64,000 nucleotides of DNA from Uloborus diversus (taxonomy: Eukaryota). Each line of letters starts with the position of its first letter. The first letter of the stretch is position 1. This document shows, in pieces, positions 10,676 through 58,330 of this stretch. The position numbers and the translations under genes were made by a program. The notes beneath the pieces are model-generated. The model did not search any database. It was not told the origin of the DNA and was given only the letters and a program-made list of their open reading frames with translations. Where the stretch lies: positions 29,492,384 to 29,556,383 of the forward strand of contig NC_072740.1 of the NCBI RefSeq assembly GCF_026930045.1, in the 5' to 3' direction.

Positions 10676-11900
10676 AGACTGCTGTTGCCATGAGATTATA
10701 TAAAGTATTCTAGAATTATTTCTTCGAAAGTTTTTCCGTCTGCTATAGTTAATACATAAGTAACACTTATTAATAAAGCAATGTTGCTACATTTTGAGAT
10801 TAAATTTCAATACTTGATTTATATTAATGTTTGATATTGTCAAAACTTTTTTTTTTAAAGAATGGACAAGGCTTCAGATGCGTCCCCTAGAAAATATAGG
10901 GAAATAAAAGCATTAATACTTCCCTCCCTACATTTCTAGAAAGCTATTGCAAATTTAACAGGTGTTTCTAAGTCAGTAGCTGCATGAATCAAAAGCTTAA
11001 AATTGACCCAAACAAGTCACTGAAAGCAGATCGCGTAGGCAAATGTAACAAAAACATATCACTGCTCCTTGTACGGACTGTAGAATCAGGGATATATGCT
11101 TTTTCGGATATTTAACATTCTCTAAAAGATATTCTTGATAGAATAGCTCCCCCAGGTAGAGTTGCATGCCACCTGGGGGGGGGGGGCACTGTTGAAAGGA
11201 AATTTTTTGACCAAGAAGCTAAAAGTAGATTTGTCGGAGAAGCATGCCTATCGAAATAATAACATTATTTGTTAATAGCACTACTTACAAATAGCTCTTA
11301 CGTGATTCAAACCTCAACAGTCATTTTTTTGGTTGTTTTTCCCACTTTATAAGCTTTTTCTCAGCCTTGGTGTGGCGTGCGTTTTTTTACTCTTCTACCA
11401 ACTGGCTCCGGACAGTCCTGGTGGAAACTTCAATACCCTGTTCATTCATAAGTAAGACAGGCTACACTCCTTTTGCGATTTTTGAGTTAAATATTACTAT
11501 CTGTGGCCGGTACGAGTATTGATGATGTGTTTTCTGTCACGTTTTCCTAAGTGATCCACTTCCAAAGGCATATTTTGGGCAATTTTAATTTTGATATATC
11601 CAACTATTGTCCTAAAAACACCTATTATACTTGAAATAACTCTCTGGCTATGTGTGGAGGGAAGTAGCAATGCTTGTATTTCCCTACACTTTCTAGGAGA
11701 CATGTTTGAAGCCTTGTCCATTCTCAAAAAAAAAAAAAAAAAGTATTGACTATTAATTAACAATATAAATCAAACATTCAAATTTAATAGCAAACTGTAG
11801 TAACATTGCTTTATTAATAAGTGTTAATTACATATTAACTATAGCAGACACCAAAACTTTCGAAGAAATAATTCTAGAACCCAGTAAGCAAAATATCTTT
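10676..11900. repeat. large inverted duplication or foldback-like element: ~300-bp arms (about 10676-10985 and 11585-11900) around a ~600-bp spacer containing a G12 tract
   Basis: 10741 gctatagttaatacataagtaacacttattaataaagcaatgttgctacattttgag…aagaatggacaaggcttcagatgcgtcccctagaaaatatagggaaata… is the reverse complement of 11590-11850 (…tatttccctacactttctaggagacatgtttgaagccttgtccattctc…caaactgtagtaacattgctttattaataagtgttaattacatattaactatagcagac); minus-strand ORF 11497..11763 and plus-strand reading 10861-10950 mirror each other (MDKASNMSPRKCREIQAL… vs MDKASDASPRKYREIKAL…). Confidence 0.75.
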
Positions 11901-15073: not shown

Positions 15074-16754
15074 CAGTGCGGTGCAAAAGTTTCAGCACAA
15101 CCAAAATCTGTTGATAAAAAGAAAAGTACACTCCAAAAAGCTTTGAAATTTTTACTGTATTTAAACACTCAGCGTACAAATTCACGTTTCAAATTTCGAA
15201 ACAATTCATAGAAATTAAAATAAGATTTCATAAAAAAAATCAAAATTTTGCTGTCACAAAAGGTGAGTCACAAAAATGAAATATTTACATTTATTAAAGG
15301 ATAAATGTCTTTTAGTAGTCTATGGTGTCACTATTGTTCCTGATGAACTCGAATTTGCAATTTTAAATTGTTAGCACAAGACATTGGAATGTTTTGGGTG
15401 TAAGACTGTACCAGGCTTCCTCGATTGTTGATTTTAGCTCTTGTACAGAGCAATACTACATCCCATTCTCGTATACGTCACGTGAGAGAAGTTTCCAGAT
15501 GTTTTTTATGAGATTGAGATCTGTGGATTGAGTGCTGGCCAGTTCATTACACTAATATTTTGAGACACAAGTCATTCTTTTGCACTGTGGGAAGTGTATT
15601 GAATTGTTGTCTTGCTGGAAAATCCAATTAGAACCCAATAGGACTTCACGAAACGCCAACAAATGCTGGCTTAGAGTATTTTGATATGCTTCTTAAGTTT
15701 ATCTGCCCTTTAAAAAGCTAAGGGAAGTTCGTCCATTGAAGCAAAAGCGCCCCATACCACTAGCAAGCCACCACCTTGTTGCCTACTGAATATGCACTTT
15801 TGATCTTCCTTCAAGTTACGCCAATAGTGTGAGAATTCATCTGGACCATCTAAATTCCATTTTTTTTCATCTGAAAATATAGCACTTATCCATTTGACAC
15901 TATAATGCATGGGGTGTTTTTCCCACTGCAGTCTTGCTTGTTTATGACACTGTTTCAGAAAAGGTTTGTAAGCTAACCTTTTTTTTGATAAATCTTGATT
16001 CATTTATTTGTGTGCGTGTGGTATACGTGATATTTTTTTCAAAGTCAAGTTTTTATCTGATTAAGAGACAAATTTCCAGTTAGAGCCATTCTTTTAATTA
16101 TTCTATCCTCACGAAAGGTAGTTTTTCTCTCCTTCCTGAGCGATACACAGGATTGAATTGTTTTCCACGTTCCAGAATGTAATATATACCTCGTTTATAG
16201 CAATTTGTCATTTCTGAAATTTCCGTAAGGATTTAACTTCAGCTTTCAGCTTCCAGAGTTTCGAAATTTCTTTCAGACAATAACTGCAGAGACTTCGGCA
16301 TCCCGATAACACGTTAAACCATTGCTACACTTTATAATTTGTTGCAAAGAATGCACTGGTCCTTCACGCATCACGTTTCAAGAGATCTTTGCATTAAATC
16401 TGATTTGTGCATAAACTTTTGGGACAGCCAAAAAATGTGGTTTGTGCTTTCTGTGATTTTTTTTTATGGTTACATTTTTCAAAATTTCAGACACATATTT
16501 AAGATTTTACTAGTCATCAACAGTAGAAATTTGAAAGCATTCGGTTGAATAGTTTTTTTTTAAATTCAAAAATTTGCAATGTGCTTAAATGATGTGTGAT
16601 AGTACATTCCCAAACTACATCAAAACCATTTGAAAATCATGTCAAAAAGAGTGACTAATTTGTTTGTATGTTGGATGGATAGCTATTTTTAATGACCTCG
16701 GTTACACCGCACTTTTTCTTTTTTCCCCGAAAAGTGCAGTATAACGAGGGGTTA

Positions 16755-16757
<3 letters not shown>
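15074..16757 (-). mobile_element. Tc1-like DNA transposon (~1.68 kb) with a pseudogenised transposase, flanked by TA
   Basis: Left end TA|CAGTGCGGTGCAAAAGTTTCAGCAC (15072-); right end …AAAAGTGCAGTATAACGAGGGGTTACTG|TA (ends 16757); minus-strand ORF 15710..16003 (…KPFLKQCHKQARLQWEKHPMHYSVKWISAIFSDEKKWNLDGPDEFSHYWRNLKEDQKCIFSRQQGGGLLVVWGAF) is the Tc1 transposase region just upstream of the DDE core; further DDE-like text on the minus strand at 15300-15700 is interrupted by stops. Confidence 0.75.
15290..16650 (-). pseudogene. Tc1-family transposase pseudogene (stops and frameshifts)
   Basis: Only fragmentary ORFs with transposase similarity; no intact ~340-aa frame. Confidence 0.6.

Positions 16758-16831
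<74 letters not shown>
16758..16831. repeat. (TA)n microsatellite, about 36 units, exactly between two Tc1-like termini
   Basis: Perfect TA run between …GGGGTTACTG and CAGTGCTGG…. Confidence 0.95.
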
Positions 16832-16834
<3 letters not shown>

Positions 16835-18333
16835 TGCTGGTAAAAAAAATTGCATCACCCTTGGGTTTTCACAACCATGGGATTATGTGAGAAGTTTTGG
16901 TCGACCGGTTAACAATAAATGTATGTGAAATTCTGCAAAACTCAGGGATCGCGCTAAGGATTTCGAATCGTTCGCCAGTAAATTCCCCAATTTTTAAAGT
17001 GTTAGCCAAATTTCAAAGGTTTTAGTCAAAGACTAACTTAAACTCATTTTAAATGTATTTTTGTCTGCAGAAATATTTAATCAGTAAGTGAAGTATAACT
17101 TAGTTTTTGACAATTTTTTGAGGATAAGGGCAGGGGTATATCCAGGAATTTTTGTCCGTTTTTAGGAATTCGGTGAGAAAAAAAAATGCTAATTTCAGTA
17201 GTTTTTCCAAATCATATGTAATTTTTCAAAGGAAAAAATGGCTAAAAACAACTTCATGTGATATTTATCATTCTTTAATAAATTTTAGATTAGAAATAAA
17301 AGCTTTAAACAAAGTAAAGACTGCATTCCCATCTTACTCCAATGTTTCAGACATTGAACACAATGAAACAAACGTGCCATTCAACAAGCCATCCGCCATC
17401 ACTTTCTACTCAGTAGCCACGCTGCGCACTCGATATCCAATCAGCGAGAGGCGCAAGTATAGTGACGCAAAGAGGTGAGAGGCAAATGTCATCCTTCCTC
17501 CGATCCGATGAACGGTAACGCTCCGCTCCAATGCTAACGCGCGTGCGCGCACCTCAATCTGCTCGGAGTGTTCCGAGGATAAAACAAATTTCAGTGATTT
17601 CTAGTCTGGGAGTTTTGTGAAAGGTTCTTTTTTAGGGGTCGGAATTTTGTGACGGGTCCGCTTTTTGGAGTCCAAATTTTGTGAACGGACTTAATTTTTA
17701 TCTAGATTGACTTCTGAAGGGAGATTTTTTTTCCTCTGTGTATATTTTAGAGAATTTTCTGTTCGCCAATAAATTCGCCAAATTCGAATTTTGTTCGCTG
17801 ATTTTATCGTATTTGGCGCATTGGCGAATGCTTAACGCGGTCCCTGAAAACTTATGAAATAAACATTTAACAGCAGGAATCCGATAATTGTTTACTTAGA
17901 AAGGGGCTCTTTCCGGGCCAAGGTAAACTGCTGACCCCATGCTCATTTTTCCATTTCTGAACCTGCGTGTGAGTTAAGAGAAAAAAAATTACTTAACCCC
18001 ACATCAATTTAAGTCTAATGGCAAGATAAAGGTTTTTAAATTGTTACTTACCAGTTTTGCCCTATGGCACGAAGCAGAATCATCCTGGAAGATGACGTTT
18101 GGAACTGAAGTAAAGTGATCATGGATAGTAGGAAGCAATTTCTCCTCCAAAATGCCAACATACCCCTGAATGTTTACTGTTCCTTGCACAAAGTGAAGGC
18201 TACTAACTCCTTAATCAGAAATACATCCCCAAATCATCTGGGATACGGAACGCTTGACTGTGTGTTGAATGCAGTCGGGATGATACTCCTCTCCTTTGTG
18301 GTGCGGGTGATGCAATTTTTTTTACCACCACTG
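16832..18333 (-). mobile_element. second Tc1-like element (~1.5 kb, internally degenerate) with near-perfect 30-bp TIRs
   Basis: Left TIR CAGTGCTGGTAAAAAAAATTGCATCACCC (16832-16860) vs right GGGTGATGCAATTTTTTTTACCACCACTG (18305-18333), each flanked by TA; minus-strand ORF 18004..18189 (…VPNVIFQDDSASCHRAKLVSNNL…) is a Tc1 DDE fragment (compare the canonical IFQQDN…H motif). Confidence 0.8.
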
Positions 18334-23165: not shown

Positions 23166-24557
23166 TGGCATGGCAGGCATAGTAAATGCAGTTCTTTTCT
23201 GCCTGAAACAAACTGTTGAATATGTTTGTCAGAGACTGATTTCAGAATTGATGATCAGACACATTTTTCCAGTCAATGAGATTGATGTTAGATTCTGCAT
23301 CAGACTTAACAACAAGAGTTTCAAAAAGTCAGAGTCCATTGTGAGTGGTCAAATGTAGTTGTTAGTATTTTTGTATTTGCAAGATGAAATGTCAAATAGC
23401 AGTGCACTAGCTTGGAAAAATGGTTTTAATTATTTCCTTAGGTGTTTTCGGTCAGGATTTCAAACGATAGTTGCATTTCAAGAGGTAGATTTTTAGCATC
23501 TCTCACTCATTTATGTTGCACGGTAGGCAGGAAGCGTTTGACCAAATTCACACATCTCGGCCAATTCTAACAACTAAAATGGCAGGTGTGAATTTAAACT
23601 AGATGCAAATTGAAAGTTTCATTACTTGTTTCTGTAAGCGATGTAGCATTTATTATTATTGCAATCTTACATAGAACAAATCCTATTTGGGTAAGGAAAT
23701 CCAAATTGCAAACTCAATCCGGAGGCAAAAAGACTGATCAGAATAGAATAAAATTTCACAGAATGCTCTATTTTACACCTTTAAGTATGCTTAATTTTGT
23801 ACTACAAATTGAATTTGTGGAATGTTGATATAAAATTTTTAAATAATTTAATTCCATTTGAAAAATGGATGGGGACATGCCAAAAGTGTGACTTTCTGGT
23901 TAATTTAAAAAATTTTGTGGAAAAACTACATGAGTTGTTGTTTTAATAAGAGTAGAATAACAACAGGTAAGTTATTTCTAACTATTAAAAAATAAAAACA
24001 TTTTCTGAGTTAACAATTTTTGTGTTAGGCTACTGGGACATAATATTGTTAAGACTTTGGAGAATCACCAATATGTCAAAAAACATTTTAACATGAAATG
24101 ATTTTTACTCAATTTTTATTGTAACACAATGATACAACCAAATTGCATGAAAACTGTTACACAAGTTTAATTTTTTAATGGTGATTATGAATCTAATGAA
24201 AAAAAAAAAAAAAGATTGCCATTAGAAATTTGAAAGTTGATTGCATATCTTTATCTCAAGACTATCCCTTAGAAAATTTTTATAATTTAAATTTTATATT
24301 GCATAGTATTTCCGATAGATTGACTAATTTTATGTGTTTTTAGCTGGGGCAAAGCTAACTTGGCAGTGTACATACTGTTGTTATCAGGTTTTTTGTACCT
24401 TTCACAATGTTGATAAGTTGACTCTACCTGAAATATAGTATAGATAGTATTGAAATGAGAAAAAGTATTTAATTTTTTTCTCCATACCACAGGTTAATTG
24501 TTTGTATTTATTCATATTTCTTTTCACATTAATTTTCTAAAGTAAACAGCAAGTTAC

Positions 24558-25349
24558 CTTTTCAAATGTAGTAGGTATTCTTTCAACTGTCTGTAATTTG
24601 TTGTTTTTAAAAGATGCTGTGAAGTTCTTTACTTCATTCATTGTGTAAAACATGTTTCGCGAGAGAGTTAGTAGGTTGGTATTTCTAATATCCAACTTTA
24701 AGTTTGGTGTCTGTAAATTAGTTAAAGCTGATTCATCTATGTGTTTCAAATTTCCACCTTCCAGTACAACAGATTTTACTGATTTAGGAATACTCCCATC
24801 AAGTCCTTGAAACTTTTTGTCTTCAATGTGCAAGTGTATTTCTCTGAGCCCATTATTTTTTTGCAACAACTGACTTACATCAATGTTTTTTAATTTGGAA
24901 TACAAATCCATTTCTATTCTTCTTAAAGCAGTTAAGCGTTGAAAAGCAGCTTTCTGAATGTCCTGCACTTTCAGATTTTTAATTATTAGCTCCTGTAAAC
25001 GTTCCATGTTTCGAAAGCTATTTTCCTGTATTGCTTGAATGGGATTCGATTGCAGATAGAGTGACCTCAAATTATGCAAATGGGACCATACATTGTTATG
25101 TATATTTTGCAGTAAATTGTTTGAAAAATCTAACACTTGCAACTTCTTAAGGTGTTCAAAAGCTTCTGACTGAATGGTTTGAATATTGTTTAAACTTAGA
25201 TTAAGAAATAAAATATTGTTAGGCTCCAAGACTGGTACACTTATCAGGCTTGTGTTTGCAAAGTTCAGAGATTCCAAGCTATTAGGCAGGCTATTTATAA
25301 TCCATTGTGGTACCTCTTCAATTATGTTATGCGAAATGTCCAAAGAAAT
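24558..25349 (-). CDS. chp: chaoptin-like protein, coding exon 2 (264 codons of LRRs)
   Basis: Polypyrimidine tract + CAG acceptor on the minus strand (tctttttactttacag|ATTTCTTTGGAC, AG = complement of 25350-25351) in phase 0 with exon 1; LRR-rich ORF (…SNNLLQNIHNNVWSHLHNLRSLYLQSNPIQAI…LDIRNTNLLTLSRNMF…); the terminal TCCLL* of the ORF is read-through, and the real end is AAG|GTAACT (donor = complement of 24552-24557), which joins in phase 0 to the LRRCT exon. Confidence 0.8.
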
Positions 25350-26385: not shown

Positions 26386-26471
26386 TAAACCTAAACATCA
26401 GTAGTTCAATTTCTGGCTTACTTTTGTGTACATTTGCAAATTATATATTTGAGGAAAATAAGCATACTTAC

Positions 26472-29063
26472 AAGTTTTGGTAGTTTGAATTTCCTTGCTT
26501 CACCAGGTAGAAAGATTCTGTTTTTTGCTATGCTTAAATGTCTTAAATGTTGTAAGCTTTCTATATGACTGAAGTTAAAAGACTTAATTTTATTTCCTGT
26601 CAATTCTAAGGACTGTAATGTTTCTTTAATTTCAAGTAGTGATTCTGTAGGAAATTCAGTTATACTATTATAAGATAGGTCTAACTGTTCTAAAACTGTA
26701 GTTGAAAATAATGTTCTTGGCAAGCTTTCTATTGTGTTGTGAGATGCAAGGAAGATTCTTAATTTATTTTGCTCTTCAAATAAATTACTTGGTAGTTTTT
26801 TAATATAATTTTGAGACAAGTCCAATATTTGAAGACTTCTTAGTCCTCTGAATTCGCTTTCTTCGATGATATCTATTAAATTGTTCCGAAAAACCAAGGT
26901 TTGTAAATGCATCATCTCTGCTACAGCAGAATTCGTGAGATTTGGAATTTGATTATTACTGAAGTCTAGTACATTGATGGAAAGTCTAATTGGGTCAAAA
27001 TAATTATTATCTACATAAGATATATTATTGCTGTTGAAGTTAATGCTTTTAATATTACTTGAAGTGTGACTGGAAGTGTAATATGCAGTTAAATTTTGAA
27101 TTTCATTATGATCAACATCAATTCTCAGTGTTGATAGTCTTCCTACTTGATCAAAAGCCTCTAAGTTGAAGGCAATTAATTTATTATAAGCTACATTTAT
27201 AAACTGAATGTTTGGTAGATTTTGAAATGCTTCATTTTCAATTTCTTCTATGAGGTTTCCTTCTAAGTTAATTGAAATTAATGAATCCAAGTTTAGAAAT
27301 GAAGATTTCTCTATTAATTTTATTAGATTATCATTTAATTGTAAGTGTACTAAATTTTGCAAATCTCTAAATGTGTTCGATTTTAATGAGCTAATTTTAT
27401 TGAAAGCAATTTTTAACTGCAATAAGTTTGGATTATTGATTCCATTAACAAAATTTATTTCTAAATTCTTGAGGTCATTGTGGTCCAAGTTCACAGTTTT
27501 AAGATTCTGAAAAATAGCGAATGATGCTTGGGGCAAATATTGCAAATTATTGTTGCTTATATCTAAGTCTTGTAGTTTTAACAAGTGGCTAAATTTTCTG
27601 TACGGAAAGGTAGACATTTGTAAAGCATTGTGTAGAAATATCTTCTCTAAAGAATGGCCTACATCCTTGAATGTTGTATTTCCAATGTTTGAAATTTTAT
27701 TATAAGATAAATCAAGATGCTTCAGTCCACCAAGTTGTTGAAATGAACCACTCTCAATACTTTCAATCGAGCTTTGAACAATGTACAATTTTTCCATTGA
27801 AGGTCCAATATTTAAAAATTGATGATTTATCTTAGATTTTTGTTTATTAAAAAACAACTCTCTTAGGTTGGGAAGATTTTGCATACTTTCAGAGGAAATG
27901 CCATTCATCTTTGGGCCTCTAATATCTAAATATTTCAGTGTTGTTCCAAAATGTTCGACATCATTAGGTTGAATTGTACCTATTTTATTTCCTGCTAGAG
28001 ATAATTTGACTAGCTTTTTTAAAGCAAGGCTGGGAAACTCAAGTAAATTGTTATAGCTTAAGTCTAAGGTTTGCAATGTATGTGAGACACTATAGAAGGC
28101 ATCATCTGAAATAAATGATATTGAACAATGAGGCATGTATAATTCAGTTATATTTGTTGTCAGAAATGTGTTATTTACTATACTTATTGGATTTCCTTTT
28201 AGTAAAAGACGATTAATATTATTGAAATTCTTAAAACTTTCTGGTAGCAATTCTGTAATAAGGTTGTACTCTAGGTGAATTTCTTCTAAATTGATTTTAT
28301 TCTTTACTTCTTTTCCTTCAGATATTGAAAAAAGTAGATTTTCATTTAGGTTGAGTATTCTCAAATTTCTTAAGTTGGTTAACATGTTAAAAGGTATTTC
28401 ATGAAGCTGATTTCCCATCAGGTTTATGCGTCGTAAGTTGTACAGTTTATTCTGTAATGTGAAATCTTCAATTGAAGTAATAGCATTGTATGCAAGATTC
28501 AGGTCTTCTAGAACTGCCATATTTTTAAAAACATCATTTTGTACATTTGTAATTGAATTTTCAGATAAGTCAAGCACTTTCAATGTGTTGCTGATGCTTT
28601 GAAAATCATCACTTTGAAATGAACTTATGTGATTTGAAGCTAAGTTCAAGTTGTATAGCTTCTCTAATTTTTGTATAGCTTCTTTAGGTACTCGAACTAG
28701 CTCGTTGGTACTGAGATCTAGAATTGATAGTGTTTTTTCAAGTCCTGCTAAAGCATTTGATGGCAGATCACTTAAGAGGTTATTATTAATTTGTAGTTTC
28801 CATAATCCAGTTCCATTCAAACTATTATCTTCTAAAAATCTTAATTTGTTGTTTTTCAAACTCATAATGTAAATAGCAGAATTGTTGATTTGACGGGGAA
28901 CTGTCATAAATGGTATGTTATGGCAACACACTGATCCTAAATCTGGGCCTCCACTTGAACAAGTACATAGTGGATTGAATAAGCAAGGTCTGTGTTGTTC
29001 CTTGTATCTTGATTCGACAATGGCAAGTATAAAAAATAAGCATAATATTTCTTGAAGTCTCAT
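26472..29063 (-). CDS. chp: chaoptin-like LRR cell-adhesion protein, coding exon 1 (ATG at 29063; signal peptide, LRRNT, ~33 LRRs; 864 codons)
   Basis: Continuous 881-aa minus-strand ORF; N-terminus MRLQEILCLFFILAIVES is a signal peptide followed by an LRRNT Cys cluster (CLFNPLCTCS...VCCHNIPF); repeated LxxLxLxxNxI(xxI) units throughout; collinear with Drosophila chaoptin as I recall it (e.g. LEEIHLEYNLITELLPESFKNFNNINRLLLKGNPI vs LDNLHLEYNHIEVLPPNSFKYF...GNPI); the ORF tail after codon CTT (26472-26474) is intron read-through because a canonical GTAAGT donor (minus strand; plus 26466-26471) begins exactly at a codon boundary. Confidence 0.85.
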
Positions 29064-30749: not shown

Positions 30750-31226
30750 AGAGCTAGATAATGTAGACGCACGCGCGCACGCCGATACATCCGATGACGT
30801 GCGGAAACATCGCCGCGGATGAGTTGCATATCGTCCGATAATCGTATAAGTTCATACGTTATAACGTTTAGGTATCGTTTTAAATTGATATTGATATTAT
30901 TTATTTCGATTGTAAAAATTATTTCCAGATAGTTTATACACCCGCGCGTTCGGTGGATGTATTTGCTGTGAGCACCCGCATCTCGCGATAATCGTTCAAA
31001 TTCTTACTTCTAATTGGTTTTAAACTGATATTATTTTATTCATTTGTAAAAGTTATAAATGGATAGTATATGCATAAGCGCCTAAGGTGGATACAGTCGC
31101 TGCTGTGCGGATACATTCGCTGTGGGCACGCGCATGTCGCGATAATCGTTCAAGTTCCTACTCTTCACTTAAAATTTGTTTTCAACTGATATTTAATTAA
31201 TGTGTAAAAATTGTCAATAGATAGTA
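30750..31226. repeat. ~160-bp satellite-like tandem array (left part, about 3 units)
   Basis: Repeated units (…gcg(c)taaggtggatacagtcgctgctgtgcggatacattcgctgtgggcacgcgcatgtcgcgataatcgttcaagttc…aactgatat…gtaaaa(a/g)tt(a/g)t(a/c)aat(a/g)gatagta) at about 30760, 30925 and 31075. Confidence 0.75.
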
Positions 31227-32587
31227 CACTCCTGTTTGTAAAAATTGCAACACCACGAAGGACTTGCGCGAGTGAGCTGAAAATTGCAGGAAATGCAAAG
31301 TAGGGCATGATATGCAAATGACTAGAATTGCAGACCAGTAGCGCAATAGTAATAGACGGCTGTAGCGAGGTGTGTATGATTATCGGTGGTTATATGCAAG
31401 AGTAAACGTTAACTGAATCGTTACTATGCCTCTTCGACGAAAGAAAGCGAAATTTGAGCAAATTTCGGAGTTTGAACTGGCAGAATCGTCGGCCTTCGTG
31501 AAGCTGGACTGTCTTATCGTGCAGTAGCTGCTCGTGTGCAGTGTAAAAGCAGCACAATCATGCGTGTTTGGAAGCAGTGAACGGACGAGGGTCGGACAGC
31601 TTGGAAATCCGGGAGTGGACCCCGAAATGTGACGTCAGTTCGCGATGACAGACACCTGGTGCGTATGGCGCTGACGGACCGCACAGCTTTTTTCTAGGCA
31701 ATTGGCAGCACAGTGGTCAACAGCTACAGGTGTTTCATTGTGTGCTTTATCAATTAGGAGACGTCTGCTGCAGCTTGGACTGCGCGCAAGGATTCCTTTA
31801 TACAAGATTCCTCTCACTCAAAATCATCGCCGCTTGCGGCTACAATGGGCCAATGTGCATAGGAGCTGACGTGCTGATTGGCAGCAGGTCGTCTTTTCTG
31901 ACGAATCCCGTTTCAATTTGTGGCACTATGATAGCCGAATTCGTGTCAGGCTACCGGTGAACGGCACATTATCGAACGCCACAGTGGACGAACACCCGGA
32001 GTAATGGTCTGGGGTGCCTAGCATATCATGGACGATCACAATTGCTACGAATTGTGAGCAATTTGAACAGCACCCGATACATAAACGAAGTTTAACAGCC
32101 TCAAGCTATTTCCTTTCCTGCAAGGATTGCCAGGGGCTGTATTCCAGCAGGATAATGCCCGTCCACATGTCGCCAGGACTGTCAAATCCTACCTTGATTT
32201 GCAGCAGGTACAGCTTCTTCCTTGGCCTGCATATTTCCTGGATATGTCACCGATTGAACATGTGTGCGATTTCGTTGGGCGGCGTCCCGCTCGTGATCCT
32301 CGTCCTGTTGCTTCGACAGACGAACTTTGGTTGCGCATACAAACAATATAGAATACTCTTCCGCAGGCAGATATTCGAACTTTGTTTCACTTCATGCCGA
32401 GTCGTGTAGCAGCTGTTATTGCGGCGCGTGGTGGCCACACAAAATACTAATTTCTATCTCTTTTTATCGTTTGTTTGGTTTGAAAATGTAATCATTTATT
32501 TGTACCATTACCACTCAACTGTGCATTAAACTTCATTGAACTATGATGCTTCCTTCATGGTGTTGCAATTTTCACAAACAGGACTGT
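31227..32587 (+). mobile_element. Tc1-family transposon (1361 bp) inserted at TA inside a satellite unit; transposase pseudogene
   Basis: TIRs CACTCCTGTTTGTAAAAATTGCAACACC (31227-) and GGTGTTGCAATTTTCACAAACAGGACTGTG (-32587), each with a flanking TA; internal frames match the widespread arthropod Tc1-like transposase (SRQLAAQWSTATGV, SIRRRLLQLGLRARIPLYKIPLTQNHRRLRLQWA, FQQDNARPHVARTV, LPWPAYFLDMSPIEHVCDFVGRRPARDPRPVASTDELWLRIQTIWNTLPQADI) but with several stops and frameshifts. Confidence 0.85.
31427..32447 (+). pseudogene. Tc1-like transposase pseudogene
   Basis: Starts MPLRRKKAKFEQISEFE…; ends …AARGGHTKY*; reading requires at least 3 frame changes; in-frame stops after LDCLIVQ and DPEM. 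Confidence 0.8.
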
Positions 32588-32880
32588 GTATACGCAAGCG
32601 CGTAAGGTGTATATATTTGCTGCTGTGCGGATACATTCGTTGCGAGCACGCGCATCTCGCAACAATCATTTAAGTTCTCCTTCTTTACTTCTAATTTGTT
32701 CAAAATTAATGTTGCTAAGGTAAAACGTAGTAATCATAGCTAGATAATATAGAAGGACGCAGACACGCAGATACATTCGCTGCTGTAAGAAAATATTTGG
32801 TGCTGTGCGGATACATTCATTGCGGACATGCGCATCTCGCCATAATCGCGAGTAATGTTCTAGTTTCCCACCTGTCCTTT
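32588..32880. repeat. ~160-bp satellite-like tandem array (right part, about 2 units)
   Basis: tatacgcaagcgcgtaaggtg…gctgctgtgcggatacattcgttgcgagcacgcgcatctcgcaacaatcatttaagttc… and a second unit from about 32740; the first unit is completed across the Tc1 insertion when joined to 31226. Confidence 0.75.
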
Positions 32881-46000: not shown

Positions 46001-47540
46001 CATTTTCCCACAAGATTTTGAAAACATATATTACTGTAGAGATTTATAATATTTTACTTGTATATCCTGCTTATAGACCTAAATTCAGTGAGCCTCAGTT
46101 GTGTTGATTAAACCACATTTATTTTAAATAACCAAATTTAAAAAAAAAATGTTTTCTAAATTTAAATTTGAAAGCAACATAAACCTGTGATAACTTCAAT
46201 ATTTTAGGTTAATAGAATAAGTGTAACATTTAGCTTCGATTTGATATAAAAGTTTAGATTTACTTATGTATCTCTCATAAGTTATAACATTGGAAAAAAA
46301 GACCGCTGAGTATATATAATAATATCCGTGCATATAAATAATTAGTAAATGAAAACTTTTATCGCAATCGTTGAGAGACTACTAAAACTAAGAGTTGGAA
46401 TTACATTTCTATATACAGTCGAGTCCCGACTTACGCGAGGGATGCGTTCCAAGACCCCTCGCGTAAGTTGAAATTTCGCGTTGTAGAACAAGGTTAGTTT
46501 AGGAATTTTTGAAAAGCATACCCAATTGCTTCAGACATTTGTAAACACCCCTCAAATTGTTTCAAACCATTTTTTAACTATATATTACAGTATCTTTTAA
46601 AAAGAACTGACGTTTTTCTGTATTTTAGAAAGAAAAAAAAAACATTATTTAACATAAAATACTGTTGAGGAGCACAGAATCAATTATCACTGCGGGAAAG
46701 AAACATAAAATAAAGCAGTATGTTTCTTACAGTATGTGCACTACAGCGTTATAATAGCACTGAAGAGTAGATATAGTAATATATTAATAATTTAAACGAG
46801 CTGATGTGTGCCTCACATGACTTCCTTTTACTCCATTTTAATGTCATTTTCCCATTATTGGCAATTTTAATGTGATTCAATAGTTTAATCTCTAAATATT
46901 AAAAACGATGGCCAAATTAAAACCAGATAAAAAAAATCGCCAAATTTTCCGCCAAGTTGGCGACAAAACTTGGCGACCAAAAGACTGGCGATATATCGCC
47001 AAGTGTCCGTCAAATTGTAACACCACTTAAGTTTGCATTGATATTAACAATGATTTCCCCCCAAAAAGGTGCAAAAGACCCCCTTAGGAACATCCGAAAG
47101 CAACCAAAAGGGGAGGTGCACAACTAGACCCCACTACGAGTCTATGTACCAAATTTCAACTTTCTAGGACATACCATTTTTGAGTTATGCGAGATACATA
47201 CGCACATACGCACATACGCACATACATACAGACGTCACGAGAAAAGTCGTTGTAATTACCTCGGTGATGGTCAAAATGGATATTTCGGGTGTCTATACAT
47301 TCTTAGGCACTTTTCCGCATGTGGTCGAATCGAAAAAAAAACTCAACATTCATTTGGGGGTGAGCAAAATGGAAATTAAGGGCGATTTTTGAGTGAAAAT
47401 TTTTTCGCGAATACAATACTTCCTTTTTTGTAAAAGGAAGTAAAAATGAAGAAGGTTTATGAGCTCGATCAGTCGCGTGACAGCGAATGCACATTAGGCA
47501 ACTCGTCATAGTCTCAGATAACACTAGGCTTGACCTATAC

Positions 47541-48290
47541 CCTCATCGAGTTTCCAAAAATTGTTACCGTAGATGAAGAGCATAAGTTGTAAATGAAACG
47601 CGAACGTAAGAATTTCTACCTCTTTCACGTGAATTAATCAGAGTTACCAGGGGTTGAAAGGTGTCCCAAAATGAAACATTTACCGTCATTGAGTTTCCAA
47701 AAATTGTTATCATAAATAAACAGTAAAAGTTGTAAACGAAACGCTTAAGTAAGGTTGCCTACCTATTGCGTGTGAATTAACACTCCGTCGGGCGCAATAT
47801 GTTGTAGAACACGATCGGGCGCATTGAGCCTGGGAATCACACTTTAATCTACTGATTTTTTCTACGCATGTTTACATTTTCTTACGAAAAAATTGTCAAC
47901 TACAAACACCAAAGAAGAGGAATAAAACAGTTTTTCATGATTTTCGAATGTAACATAAGTTTAAGAAAATGAATATACATTTTTCCATGAGCTATTGAGG
48001 GGGCGTGGCTAACTAAAGAATTCGAGGTGTGCCTAATAGATCAGTTGCGCCCGACGGAGTGTTAATCAGGATTGCCAGGGGCTAAAAGGTGCCCAAAAAG
48101 GAGTAAGTTACCCTCATCGAGTTTCCAAAAGTTGTTGTCATAAATAAAGAGTAAAATCTATAAAGAAAACGTTCAAGTTAAGTTTGCCAACCTTCTTCCG
48201 GTCCCTAATCAGGGTTGTCAGAGGTTTAAAAGGGCTCAGAAATTAATAATTTTCCCTCATCGAGTTTCCACATATAAAAAAATGTAGGCA
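47541..48290. repeat. internal ~150-bp tandem array (4 units) inside the 46416-48521 element
   Basis: Units begin ccctcatcgagtttccaaaaattgtt… at 47541, about 47690 (ccgtcattgag…), 48110 and 48252; each contains …gaattaatcag(a/g)(g/a)tt(a/g)ccagggg(t/c)t(g/a)aaaggtg(t/c)ccaaaa. Confidence 0.75.
47781..48060. mobile_element. 280-bp MITE with 17-bp perfect TIRs (CACTCCGTCGGGCGCAA / TTGCGCCCGACGGAGTG) and a TTAA target-site duplication, nested in the tandem array
   Basis: Flanks gaaTTAA|cactccgtcgggcgcaa … ttgcgcccgacggagtg|TTAAtcaggattgccagggg; the uninterrupted neighbouring unit reads gaaTTAAtcagagttaccagggg, so TTAA is duplicated exactly (a piggyBac-type target). Confidence 0.85.
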
Positions 48291-51289
48291 AAAATATCAC
48301 AAAGCCGATGGTATAGGGTTGTCATAGCAAACGTAGTCCAATCATAGGCTATCGCTATTCGAAGTTTCAATAATTGAAACTTCGCGCCCCGCGACTCTTT
48401 TCCAAAAATTTTCGCTCTGCAGGCAATGAGTTGGCGTTGGAAAAAAAAATCATTACTCAGGGAAAACTCGCGTTGTAGCCATTTCGCGTAAGTCGGATCG
48501 CGTTGTAGCGCGATCCGACTGTATTTTACAAACTAGAAACACGATATTTTCCCAAAATCACCATAATTAATGACAATATCGCCTGTAATTACCTTGGTTG
48601 AGAGGGACTCGGAAAATAAAGAGTAATTTATGATATAGAAAATAAGAGTAAATAGAGTACCCTTGTAAATGATAGCAAATTAACATATTAGACATTTTTC
48701 TTAAAGATTCGTTTGTATTGTATTCACAATTACCCCACTATAGAAACCGTGAAAATATTTTACCTATTAGTGCAAAAACAAATCTATTGTTTAAAGGCAT
48801 TAACTCATATGGACCAAGATCATGGACCACCTTACCCAACTGTTTAAAAACCATAAATAGCAGAAATTTGTTTAAGAAAAGGCTTAAAAATTTTATACTC
48901 AATTCTACTGCAATTAATTTAGGAAAAAGTAGCGTATTTGTAATAGTATACCTTGATTTTGTTATAAATTTCGACTTATTTTTTTGCATTACTTGTGTTG
49001 TGTTTATGTGTTCTTTGTATGATTATGCATATAAACTGGTCTTAAATTAAGTTTTACTTTTCTGAGTGGTGGGAGCTAGTCAGGCTATTGTTATAGCCTT
49101 TACTTCCACCTACTCAATCAGGGATTTTCAAATAGACAGAGTGAATTATACTTCTGTTAGTAATTTATTTCCTGTTATTCTCATCTGTGAAATGCATTTT
49201 TTGTAAAAAATACTACCCTGATCGAAAAAAAGAAAAAATGAATATATACCAATAATAAAGAAGATATCACTAGTAAATTTTCAAAATATAAAGAGTGATT
49301 CTTACCTTGATAAATTAAATTTTCGAATATAGAATCCAAATGTACTCCACATCTGTCGTGCGGGAGAATTTCCCCTCTTCTTGCTTCTGGTGTTTCTGAG
49401 GATTAACTGAAACGGTCCTAATAGGCTTAGAATATTTTCCAGATATTATTCGTGCTGAGGTGTGCTTTTATATAAGCTTTTGAAACTGTGGTGCTTCAAA
49501 AGGGGAAAAGAAAGCCCACAAGTTCTTGGGCCTATTTCGATATCGTCAGAATCGTTTCGTAAACAGATGTAATATTAATCGATGAGTCACATAAGTACTC
49601 GATGATTTGGGGGGGGGGGACTTGTTCGCATTGCATTTAGTTTTTTTTTCTGTAATTCAAAGTAAATTTTAAAATATGCTGGAATACATACCCTTTTCCT
49701 GAAAACTGGCTAGTTTTATTAATGATGTATGAAGCTTTTATCGTAATTTTCCGAAATGTTTAATGTGTTGAAACTTAACCTAGTATTTTTTAAAAAATTG
49801 TGTCATTTTCCTGAGAAAATGAAAATTTTCCAAAAAAAAAAAAAAAAAAACGAAATAGCATTTTTTTTCACACTCTCTCTTTCTTTTTTCTTTGTTGTTG
49901 TAAAAATAAAAATTCATACTTGCTTGAAGCTTGTATAGTGCCCACAAAATGTAGTGCATTTCAATACAAATCGAGTTTTTAGGAAACTTAAGAATTAATA
50001 AATATAAGTTTAAAATTCATACTTACTTGATTCTGGTGTAGTGCCTGCAAAGTGTAGTGCATTTAAATAGAAATTGAGTTTTAAAGAAATTTAAGAATTC
50101 TTTCAAAGCACGATTTAAAATCTCCGAAAATGTTGTTTTTTAACGTTACAAAATTCAAGTGTTGGGCACATTAGTTAAATTTTTAGTTGATTGAATGAAT
50201 TTGACCAATTTTTTGGTGAAACTAATCGATTGATTCGTGCTTAAATTAATCTGCGTTGGGCACATTAGTCTTTTGTTTAGTTGCTTAAATTAATCTGGCT
50301 AACTTTAACTTGGATTCATTTCAACTAGACGAAATTCAGTTCATTTATTTCTGATTTTTCTTTTAAGTAGCTATTGAATCAATTCAAAATAACCCTTTTT
50401 CACTCGTATTTATGTAGCATTGTTATTTTTCCTCAACCGTCATTAAATTTGAGCAAACTTTTCATCAGTTGGGAATTATTTTTAAATACTCATTCATTCA
50501 TATGTTCATTTATTAATTGTTTTACTTACTTATTCACGGCACTCACTCATCATTCACTCATTAACTTATTCATTCATTATTTTTTTCTCTTGCATTTATT
50601 CACTCACTCAAGTCTGGATCTATAAATTTTGGGCCCCCAGCAAAAAATCACCAGGGCCCCTAACCACCCATTGGATTCTCCCCCCTCCCCAACGAGGGAT
50701 TCTTGTTCGTTTTTAATTACTTCAATATTTCTACCTTAATTTTGAATTCATTTGTTTAAATATTTTTATTTCTTTATTATTACATTCGATTTTTTTTAAG
50801 GTTTTGAGTAGTTATGTGGGGCTTTTTATCCATATTTTTGGATAATCATTCTGTTTATGAGTAATAGTACCGTAAAATCGTCCAACTATGCGCCATTTTT
50901 CGCTGTTTTCAATGAAAATTCCGTGTACATCTTTGATTTAGAAATTTGAGGACTTTAGCAATGGTAGCTATGCATCTCATCTTTCAAATGAAATGTTAAA
51001 AAAAATCTAAGTTGGAAAGAAGAGGAAGGGGAATTTTTCCCCCGTGGCCGATAGTTGTACCCCTACGGGGTACAACTAATGCACAGTGGTGCAACAGTGG
51101 CCCATTGTTGCTCCCTTGGCACAAAGTTGTACCAATGGGAGCAACAAAGTTTATGGTAGCAAGTAATCAATGGAGCCAAAATTTCTCAGGACGTTTCTCA
51201 GTATTCTAATTTTATTCAATCTTTCAATTCGATTTAAGTTTAAAAAAAAAAGAAAAACCAAAACTGTTCTCCTCTGCATATCTGGGTTT

Positions 51290-57129: not shown

Positions 57130-58330
57130 TTGTTAAAAAAAAAATTCATAGTTTCGTTCCAAATAATTCTTTTAAGGTTTCTTTTGATATTAACTCTTTA
57201 TTTACGAACGTTCCCGTCGAGGGTTCATTGTTATGCGTTCGTAAAAGACCATCTGAATTTCATTTCACCAATACGGAAATTGAGGATTTAGTTTTCCTTA
57301 CCCGTACCTGTCTTAAGCAAGGTTCTTTTGTTTTTAATGGGAAATTTTATATTATGTTAGATGGTCTGGCTATGGGAAACCCACTCAGCCCCATTCTTAG
57401 TGATATTTACATGCATTATTTTGAGGTTAAGCTGTTCCAAAAACTGCAGTTTCAATTTTATGTTCGGTATGTTGATGATTGTTTTGTTCTAATGAACCAG
57501 AATCAGTTTGAGAGTGATGAGGTTTTATCTATTTTAAAATCCATTGATCCTCATATTCAATTTTCTTGTGAGAAAGAACGGAATAATTGAATTTCGTTTC
57601 TTGATGTACTTGTTTCTCGTACTGAAATTGGTTTTGAAACTACTGTTTATCGCAAACCTTTTGCTGTTTCTTTACCTCCTCATAAGACTATCGTCTCATC
57701 CTCCAAATCAAAAATATTCTGCTTTCAATTCTTTTGTTTATCGCGCAATCAATATTTGTCCTTCATCGGAACTTCTTCAAGGGGAACTTAATTATCAAAA
57801 AGCTGTGGCAATTGATAGAGACTATCCGCCAACTTTGATTGATTTCATTTATAAAAAAAATTCAAATAAATCCCAAACTAATGTTCTTAACCGAACATTC
57901 ATCAGAAAGAATTTGGTTGTTTTGCCATTCTTTCCATCTATAAGCTATCAGGTTGCTAAGATTCTAAAACGTTTCCAATTCCAGGTGGTGTTCTCTGCTA
58001 TTAATAAATTTTCATTCTCTTCTCTTAAAGATCATATTCACCCTCTTAATTGTTGCGGAATTTATGGAATTAATTGTAGTTGTAAACTTGCGTATATTGA
58101 TTAGACTCGGCGTGCTTTAAAAATTCGTTGAAAGAGCATCAAAATTATGTGAAAAAACAACAATTAAGTAAGTCTAGTATTGCTCAACATTATTGAGATT
58201 CGAATCACTCTTTTGATCTTAACTCTTATCAGATTATCCAAAAATGCCCCAATTCATCAGATCTTGACTTTTGGGAATCTTTTCATATTTTAAGGAACAG
58301 TTTTAACTTAGTTAATGATCTTAAAGCAGT
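57130..58330 (+). mobile_element. Penelope-like retroelement (PLE) fragment: reverse transcriptase + GIY-YIG endonuclease, 5'-truncated and pseudogenised
   Basis: RT motifs are read from the plus strand: SFDINSLFTNVPVE (motif A region), FYIMLDGLAMGNPLSPILSDIYMHYFE (motif B'), YVRYVDDCFVL (motif C, YVDD); downstream CGIYGINCSCKLAYID*TRRALKIRLKEHQNYVKKQQLSKSSIAQH is the GIY-…-YIG endonuclease signature with the YIG codon corrupted to a stop; further stops at 57590 and 58104. Confidence 0.75.

Follow-up and report, generated by a model that had tools for sequence, protein, structure and literature searches.

A probable piggyBac-type MITE within a 143-bp tandem array of a TA-flanked non-autonomous element

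Background

Positions 46416-48521 of the window (the whole 64-kb stretch of DNA that was analysed, to whose numbering all coordinates refer) raise the question of which mobile elements have come to lie within one another at this locus, and in what order. A sequence-only reading had claimed that an inner TTAA-flanked element lies within a tandem array, and the array within a TA-flanked outer element; this nesting holds and the coordinates are exact. The locus is a case of transposons inserted into transposons, well resolved yet ordinary. The nesting geometry, both target-site duplications, an equivalent of the empty site, the non-coding nature of the elements and the age order of the insertions can be read directly from it, each element being judged from one copy in the 64-kb window. 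The window also carries a chaoptin ORF, which is 66% identical to that of Stegodyphus and 64% identical to that of Nephila and points to a spider-like arachnid as the host.

Results and discussion

Target site of the inner element

The inner element occupies positions 47781-48061 (unstranded), is non-coding and has a GC content of 39.5%, with an AT-rich core and GC-rich ends. Its length is 281 bp, where 280 bp had been given earlier, and its ends, CACTCCGTCGGGCGCAA...TTGCGCCCGACGGAGTG, are the perfect 17-nt TIRs that had been described, the left one at 47781-47797 on the plus strand and the right one, its reverse complement, at 48045-48061 on the minus strand. A scan for CACTCCGTCGGGCGCAA allowing at most three mismatches returned 2 matches in the window, with 0 expected. 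Copies of TTAA adjoin the two ends (47777-47780 and 48062-48065, both unstranded), and the inverted repeat is 22 nt long when TTAA is included. The ends are asymmetric, as the TIR core, TCGGGCGCA, recurs sub-terminally in direct orientation at the left end alone (47815-47823, plus strand); all three occurrences of this 9-mer in the window are inside the inner element. In its size (under about 800 bp) and lack of coding sequence the element agrees with MITEs, and it is known from one copy.

In silico removal of 47781-48065 (285 bp) restored the split repeat unit to exactly 143 bp, and the alignment of the restored unit 2 with both of its neighbours had 0 gap columns. The site reads GTGAATTAATCAG in unit 1 and GTCCCTAATCAG in unit 3, with a single TTAA or CTAA, so that the unit consensus has one TTAA at this position. 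Two copies there would have spoken against the TTAA duplication claimed earlier, which is instead borne out by the paralogous empty site and the gap-free 143-bp unit. The tandem repeat provides its own empty site, and the TSD is therefore proven without population data, which makes the locus a tidy teaching example.

The tandem array

In the array (47538-48270) a 143-bp unit is repeated 3.1 times, with 66-77% identity between units. Unit 1 lies at 47538-47680. Unit 2 is divided by the insertion, with its first 100 bp ending the left part of the array (47538-47780, plus strand) and its remaining 43 bp opening the right part (48066-48270, plus strand), which goes on with unit 3 at 48109-48251 and closes with 19 bp of an incomplete unit 4. 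TRF detects the array only once the MITE is taken out, and then reports a period of 143, 3.1 copies and 77% matches. The earlier description, four units of about 150 bp, was correct as to the tandem array and has to be amended in the number and size of the units. The outer element had also been described as if its interior were tandem repeat only. This does not stand: with the inner insertion subtracted, roughly 1.8 kb of the outer element remain, and the array accounts for ~448 bp, or ~25% of the interior. Unrelated sequence takes up over 1.1 kb of the interior (46439-47537). Unique sequence in the interior comes to about 1.4 kb.

The array would either have been brought in by the outer element or have grown at this site through slippage or unequal exchange. 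Transposon-borne tandem repeats, and the spread of arrays in this manner, have already been documented (PMC3879986; PMC6004289), and carrying and spreading the array may be a candidate role of the outer element, seen here in one copy. The nearest array-bearing systems are the tandem-repeat-containing MITEs DTC84 of Donax trunculus and pearl/CvA of oysters (PMC3879986). DTC84 and pearl resemble the outer element in their central array of at most ~5 core repeats of satellite-like length, their microsatellite segment and their inverted-repeat flanks. They have putative duplications of AA, form high-copy families and carry the array as a fixed module, whereas the outer element was seen once and its array fills the smaller part of the interior.

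Structure and origin of the outer element

The outer element (46416-48521, plus strand, 2106 bp) is flanked by TA at 46414-46415 and at 48522-48523 (both unstranded), supported on both sides by the sequence and by a pattern match that takes in the TA. Its left TIR, CAGTCG-AGTC-CCGACTTACGCGA (46416-46438, plus strand), runs into a local palindrome of 14-15 bp (46427-46470), and its right TIR, CAGTCG-[GATCGCGCTACAACGCGAT]-CCGACTTACGCGA (48484-48521, minus strand), has an extra 19 nt that complete a palindrome with a 12-bp stem. The TIRs are imperfect, with 6 + 13 identical bases split by 4 nt at one end and 19 nt at the other, a 15-nt difference. The pattern TACAGTCG-N(0-25)-CGACTTACGCGA (equivalent to CAGTCG, a loop and CGACTTACGCGA) had 2 matches in the 64 kb, in inverted orientation, and none in 100 shuffles. 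The motif CTACAACGCGA, with 3 matches against 0.25 expected, is confined to the two ends of the outer element and has the same orientation at both. Because of this shared orientation, the 15-nt indel and the separate palindrome of each end, the ends are not simply symmetric. The interior includes a (ACATACGC)n microsatellite of 3.8 copies (47196-47225, unstranded). The longest ORF has at most 87 codons, and protein searches found no homologue of the ORFs. The Tc1/mariner-style ends (TA followed by CAGT...) and the missing transposase noted earlier are thus confirmed, and at 2106 bp the structure exceeds a MITE in the strict sense and is classed as a non-autonomous element.

The TA duplication, the CAGT-type tip and the missing coding capacity are features that the outer element shares with non-autonomous elements of the Tc1/mariner superfamily, and so are TIRs that carry repeated sub-terminal motifs and an end able to form a hairpin; compared with Tc1/mariner MITEs it is, at 2.1 kb, too long, and its TIRs differ by the 15-nt indel. 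Its nearest relatives may be pogo/Tigger-type MITEs, with ends CAGTCG...GGGAT.GGTTCCA.GACCCC; string searches of the literature gave no support for a Tigger-like resemblance of the ends. Tc1-like relics are present in the window at ~31.1-32.35 kb (HTH_Tnp_Tc3_2, E = 1.7e-11) and at 16.8-18.3 kb. Their TIRs begin CAGTCGCTGCTGTGCGG... and CAGTGCTGGTAAAAAAAATTGC..., not CAGTCGAGTCCCGAC..., and no autonomous partner with the outer TIRs was found within the window. A Pfam scan of the long ORFs of the window yielded no transposase and an RVT_1 fragment only, and stretches that appeared Tc1-like by eye (15.5-16.2 kb and 18.0-18.2 kb) had no Pfam match.

It is possible, though we lean against it, that the outer structure is a former hairpin-like MITE of ~100 bp, later enlarged by insertions unrelated to it and by a tandem duplication at the locus, and that the array was never mobile. 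The small share of the interior taken up by the array would fit such a history, as would the left end, which by itself forms a near-complete hairpin (ACTTACGCGA in (+) and (-) orientation at 46429 and 46459), and the occurrence of TCGCGTAAGT and GAAAnnTCGCGTTGTAG as direct repeats at both interior edges. The block at 47030-47445, which has its own microsatellite, a terminal hairpin and an A-run, suggests a separate insertion; Rfam and tRNA scans of this block for a SINE origin gave only a sub-threshold mir-297 match, on the microsatellite. However, these further nested insertions show no definable TSDs or TIRs, and MITEs with fixed internal tandem arrays do exist (PMC3879986; Xmix/Xstir), both of which speak against this history.

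Superfamily of the inner element

Published piggyBac TIRs are 12-19 bp long and start with C[C/A/T][C/A/T][T/G/A][T/A/G][T/G/A] (PMC5381638). Four 5' end classes (CCCTT, CCCTC, CCCAT and CACTA) are conserved, and spider genomes contain many piggyBac types (PMC10813416). The tips of the inner element, C-A-C-T...A-G-T-G, and its 17-nt TIR are compatible with the published ranges. Positions 1-4 of the TIR, CACT, match the motif and are identical to the tips found in piggyBat and in spider PiggyBac-8 and -21, but CC at positions 5-6 departs from the degenerate motif that has been published. In the spider Argiope trifasciata, PiggyBac-8, -13 and -21 have the tips CACTA, CACGT and CACTT, respectively, with TTAA duplications, and piggyBat, an active element of Myotis lucifugus, has CACT tips adjoining TTAA as the inner element does. 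The suggestion that non-canonical ends mark a distinct TTAA-targeting family therefore fails: among piggyBac ends the CACT tip forms a recognised class, known from piggyBat and from spiders, and since its combination with TTAA already occurs within piggyBac no new family is needed.

The inner element thus shares with CACT-type piggyBac elements the TTAA duplication, the 5'-C...G-3' termini, the CAC(T) tip, a TIR within 12-19 bp, an asymmetric sub-terminal repeat and a piggyBac-rich spider host lineage; the spider-like host was counted towards the assignment because spider genomes are rich in piggyBac types. It differs from autonomous piggyBac elements in being without a transposase, and its TIR likeness to named families covers the first four bases. 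More general relatives are piggyBac-type MITEs such as human MER85 and the PiggyBac class in iMITEdb. A tblastn search of the window with the T. ni protein, of limited sensitivity, found no relic of a piggyBac transposase (best E 4.8).

An unlikely alternative is that the inner element is a 283-bp TA-targeting MITE of the Tc1/mariner type, with termini ACACTCC...GGAGTGT, inserted at a TA that happened to have T and A as its flanks. TTAA being palindromic, a single copy is also compatible with a TA duplication and A...T termini, and the string gaaTTAAtcag is explained equally well, gaat+TA+atcag being the same string. The inverted repeat, moreover, continues through the TTAA to its full 22 nt, and Tc1/mariner relics are common in the window. 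The TA reading nevertheless requires a T to the left of the TA and an A to its right, a coincidence of ~0.11 at ~33% of each base in the window, whereas the tips obtained with a TTAA target, CACT...AGTG, already match a documented piggyBac end class, spiders included. ACAC... is not known as a typical tip of Tc1/mariner elements.

Assignment to another superfamily that duplicates TTAA or 4 bp (Kolobok, Sola), or to a new non-piggyBac TTAA family, is very improbable: TTAA duplication is not piggyBac-specific, because Kolobok targets TTAA too, TIR positions 5-6 depart from the piggyBac motif and no partner transposase was found in the window, but the RR...YY termini of Kolobok contrast with the C start and G end of the inner element, and a new family is superfluous where CACT tips with TTAA are known inside piggyBac. 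Kolobok and the T2/Xmix MITEs of Xenopus have the same TTAA target and MITE size as the inner element. Kolobok membership was rejected, as Kolobok requires 5'-RR...YY-3' termini (the RR being AG in all Xenopus copies), and those of the inner element are 5'-CA...TG-3'. In Xmix, an internal segment became the tandem repeat family Xstir. A Stowaway-like affinity was likewise rejected, the one likeness being a 7-mer, CTCCGTC, which is presumably common to both and stands at a different offset. A piggyBac-type MITE is thus the reading followed below.

Order of the insertions

The inner element has 0 differences over 21 paired TIR and TSD positions, against differences at 23-34% of sites between units of the array. 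Were the MITE as old as the divergence of the units, the probability of finding no difference would, by our own calculation, be ~0.77^21, or roughly 0.004. The inner insertion is therefore younger than the array.

We consider it probable that the locus arose as a piggyBac-type MITE inside an older Tc1/mariner-type element, an account whose superfamily assignments, trans-mobilisation and array origin are the parts that we infer. It would involve two independent cut-and-paste insertions, at different times, both of non-autonomous DNA transposons. An older transposase-less element of the Tc1/mariner superfamily would have entered a TA, which was duplicated; later, a 281-bp MITE of the piggyBac superfamily would have entered the single TTAA of repeat unit 2, duplicating it in turn. 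The transposase that mobilised the MITE would have been supplied in trans from another locus of the genome, and would presumably recognise the 17-nt TIR, whose tip is 5'-CACT, and the motif TCGGGCGCA.

A bolder version, in which the 281-bp element represents an uncatalogued, recently active spider piggyBac lineage (with CACTCC-type ends and TCGGGCGCA as a candidate binding motif) and the outer element is a vehicle seeding 143-bp satellite arrays genome-wide, seems to us improbable; if true, it would offer an arachnid case, open to dating, of a satellite born by transposition. Both elements are additions to kinds of transposon that are already known, and tandem-repeat-carrying MITEs were known before. 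The locus leaves current views on TTAA-targeting transposons and on transposon-satellite links unchallenged, and its value is mainly one of annotation. It draws attention to a family of piggyBac-type MITEs, probably a young one, in a spider-like genome, and this family could serve as an insertion-polymorphism marker or indicate an active transposase.

Searches for further copies

A blastn search of the region against the whole window returned self matches and unit-to-unit matches of the array only. Scans for the 17-mer TIR in collections without the host genome matched at least 120 stretches in metagenomes, 93 in prokaryote genomes and 1 in viruses. The contigs concerned are GC-rich (median 62% GC), and each match is single and was put down to chance; among the matches listed there was no second TIR, interior similarity or TTAA flank. 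A paired-TIR scan of the JGI metagenomes, again a collection without the host genome, gave 0 matches. Six-frame chimeric translations of the MITE and the outer element, searched against 5.8 billion proteins with the aim of catching spurious ORFs derived from other copies, had no match. A search of paper text for the TIR strings of both elements found no relevant paper except for piggyBat oligonucleotides. When the window was scanned for TTAA-TIR-TTAA structures, one further match was obtained, at 10770-11817, which was rejected as merely part of a long foldback-like inverted repeat.

Insertion site and structure of the inner element

The 281-bp inner element (47781-48061) is flanked by parts of a tandem repeat. 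The empty site was rebuilt by removing positions 47781-48065 in silico, after which TRF reported an array of period 143 at 47538-48270, made up of 3.1 copies with 77% matches and indels at 1%; TRF did not report the array from the native, unedited sequence. After this repair unit 2 measured exactly 143 bp and aligned to units 1 and 3 without gap columns. The insertion point reads GTGAATTAATCAG, GTGAATTAATCAG and GTCCCTAATCAG in the three units, and comparison of the units therefore established that the insert added exactly 285 bp and that the repeat consensus has a single TTAA. The TTAA duplication proposed in the sequence-only reading was thus confirmed, as the consensus unit holds one TTAA, not two, at the insertion point and deletion of 285 bp restores the 143-bp unit; the nested arrangement described there was also borne out and precisely located.

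The 17-nt inverted ends, CACTCCGTCGGGCGCAA, lie at 47781-47797(+) and 48045-48061(-); no further match turned up in the 64 kb with up to 3 mismatches permitted, zero being expected by chance. Their complementarity runs to 22 nt because TTAA and one further base on each side are palindromic. The element has 39.5% GC, with an AT-rich core and GC-rich ends, and its longest stop-free stretch is at most 46 codons. Three copies of the 9-mer TCGGGCGCA are present in the window: one per TIR, plus a sub-terminal copy in direct orientation 27 bp inward from the left end. Such an asymmetric layout of TIRs plus a direct repeat is among the structural groups of piggyBac-like elements (PMC5381638), and is not exclusive to them.

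Superfamily of the inner element

The TIRs of 157 surveyed piggyBac-like elements are 12-19 bp long and start C[C/A/T][C/A/T][T/G/A][T/A/G][T/G/A], and the same survey states that CCC is often not the first three bases (PMC5381638). Four 5' end classes are conserved in piggyBac, CACTA among them; spiders have many piggyBac types, including PiggyBac-8 (CACTA/CACTA), PiggyBac-13 (CACGT/CACGT) and PiggyBac-21 (CACTT/CACTT, with a 640-aa ORF) of Argiope trifasciata, all with TTAA/TTAA (PMC10813416 and its Table S2). In oligonucleotides of the active bat element piggyBat, the left end is TTAA followed by CACTTGG... and the right end is CACTACGG... (PMC13405395). These reports run counter to the argument of the sequence-only reading that such CAC... 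ends lie outside piggyBac. With its 17 nt, CACT tip and C...G termini, the inner TIR therefore falls inside the known piggyBac range, departing from the degenerate motif only at positions 5-6 (CC), and the inner element is best read as a piggyBac-type MITE.

Alternatively, the insert could be a 283-bp ACAC...GTGT element whose duplication was limited to the TA in the middle of tTAa; TTAA being palindromic, this gives identical filled and empty sequences. We consider it unlikely, however, as it requires a T before and an A after the target TA (chance ~0.11 from the window base composition, which is AT-rich with 33% GC) and loses the agreement of the tips with an established class of piggyBac ends. 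Kolobok, the other well-known TTAA-targeting superfamily, requires 5'-RR...YY-3' termini (PMC6004289, PMC9587614), which the inner element does not have.

No piggyBac transposase relic was found in the 64-kb window. A window scan for TTAA-TIR-TTAA returned the MITE and one incidental match within a long foldback-like structure at 10708-11879, whose arms of ~350 bp (10708-11054 and 11531-11879, 72-83% complementary) surround ~480 bp. Metagenome, viral and prokaryote-genome scans for the inner TIR gave chance 17-mer matches only.

The outer element and its interior

At the left boundary of the 2106-bp outer element (46416-48521) the sequence reads, from 46414, TA followed by CAGTCGAGTCCCGACTTACGCGA; the right boundary, in reverse complement, reads TA followed by CAGTCGGATCGCGCTACAACGCGATCCGACTTACGCGA and finishes at 48523. 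A search with TACAGTCG-N(0-25)-CGACTTACGCGA returned exactly two matches in the window, inverted relative to each other, and none in 100 shuffles, which identifies the ends as real TIRs with TA duplications, broken by an indel (4 nt vs 19 nt). At the right end, the additional 19 nt complete a palindrome with a 12-bp stem, and a different palindrome of 14-15 bp lies immediately inside the left TIR; both fold much better than shuffles (z-scores -4.1 and -4.8). The motif CTACAACGCGA (3 copies vs 0.25 expected) is confined to the two ends and has one orientation in all copies, so that the ends are not simply symmetric.

Based on the TA duplication and CAGT-type TIRs, the outer element is best assigned to the Tc1/mariner superfamily as a non-autonomous member; at its size it falls outside the strict definition of a MITE. 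We take its left end to resemble Tigger/pogo-type ends (CAGTCG...GGGAT.GGTTCCA.GACCCC...CGCG), as a lead only, literature string searches having given no confirmation. No ORF exceeds 87 codons, no homologue of its concatenated six-frame translation was found among 5.8 billion proteins, and protein-space searches with both inner and outer elements returned no matches.

The array that the sequence-only reading gave as the interior is present but is not the sole content: it spans only ~448 bp, and 46439-47537 is unrelated to it. A block at ~47030-47445, containing the microsatellite (ACATACGC)n (47196-47225, 3.8 copies), ends 3' in a hairpin (cttccttttttgtaaaaggaag) and then an A-run, which hints that it may be an insertion of its own, SINE-like or otherwise; its boundaries could not be defined, and searches gave no tRNA or Rfam match and no second copy. 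A 25-nt near-perfect palindrome, CGAAGTTTCAATAATTGAAACTTCG, lies at 48360-48384 between the array and the right end. With one copy available, the array could be a fixed module shared by the members of a transposon family, like those of DTC84/pearl (PMC3879986) or Xmix/Xstir (PMC6004289), or a local duplication inside a relic. When the region was compared by BLAST with the window itself, no match fell outside the locus.

Order of events

The TIR bases (17+17) and duplication bases (4+4) of the inner element show zero differences, whereas 23-34% of sites differ between array units and the outer TIRs are decayed; by these comparisons the MITE insertion is the latest event. Had the MITE inserted as long ago as the units diverged, all 21 paired positions would be identical with a probability of ~0.004 by our own calculation. 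The locus is best read as a piggyBac-type MITE lying in a short 143-bp array that is itself contained in an old non-autonomous element of Tc1/mariner type, in a spider-like genome. Nesting of transposons, MITEs specific for TTAA, piggyBac ends with CACT tips and MITEs that carry repeats have all been described before, and the locus adds at most one new family of kinds already known.

Other features of the window

A degenerate Tc1-like transposon occupies 31092-32350 and 32620-32860, its left end being TA followed by CAGTCGCTGCTGTGCGGATACATTCGCTGTGGGCAC (CAGTCGCTGCTGTGCGG). Stop-free stretches at ~31.1-32.35 kb match HTH_Tnp_Tc3_2 (E = 1.7e-11) and, weakly, DDE_3 ('FQQDNARPHVA'); two more copies of its end-like segment (~32620-32680 and ~32800-32860) are direct, not inverted. 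A second, ~1.5-kb Tc1-like element (16832-18333) has 29-nt TIRs, CAGTGCTGGTAAAAAAAATTGCATCACCC, at 16832-16860 and 18305-18333, a long (TA)n microsatellite (16754-16835) adjoining its left end, and a Tc1-like remnant 'VIFQDDSASCHRAKL' at 18007-18210(-). Additional Tc1-like stretches were noted at 15555-16194(-); Pfam gave no match for these or for the 18007-18210 remnant. The ends of the outer element agree with the two relics no further than CAGT(CG).

Directly downstream of the outer element, a 110-codon ORF (48718-49050(+)) without a Pfam match carries '...LPNCLKTINSRNLFKKRLKNFIL', which is reminiscent of the C-terminal end of certain ORF2 proteins from non-LTR retrotransposons. An RVT_1 reverse-transcriptase fragment at 57228-57590(+) (E = 1e-6, just below the Pfam cut-off), with adjacent ORFs extending to 58104, suggests a retrotransposon relic.

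Protein matches also revealed a chaoptin-like LRR gene, whose closest relatives in spiders identify the host as a spider or a near relative among the arachnids. The gene has two long exons, 24537-25343(-) and 26418-29063(-). The latter is an ORF of 881 codons encoding the N-terminal part of the protein, with top matches in protein search to Stegodyphus dumicola chaoptin-like (66% identity) and Nephila pilipes (64%), and insect proteins forming a second tier at 34-42% identity.
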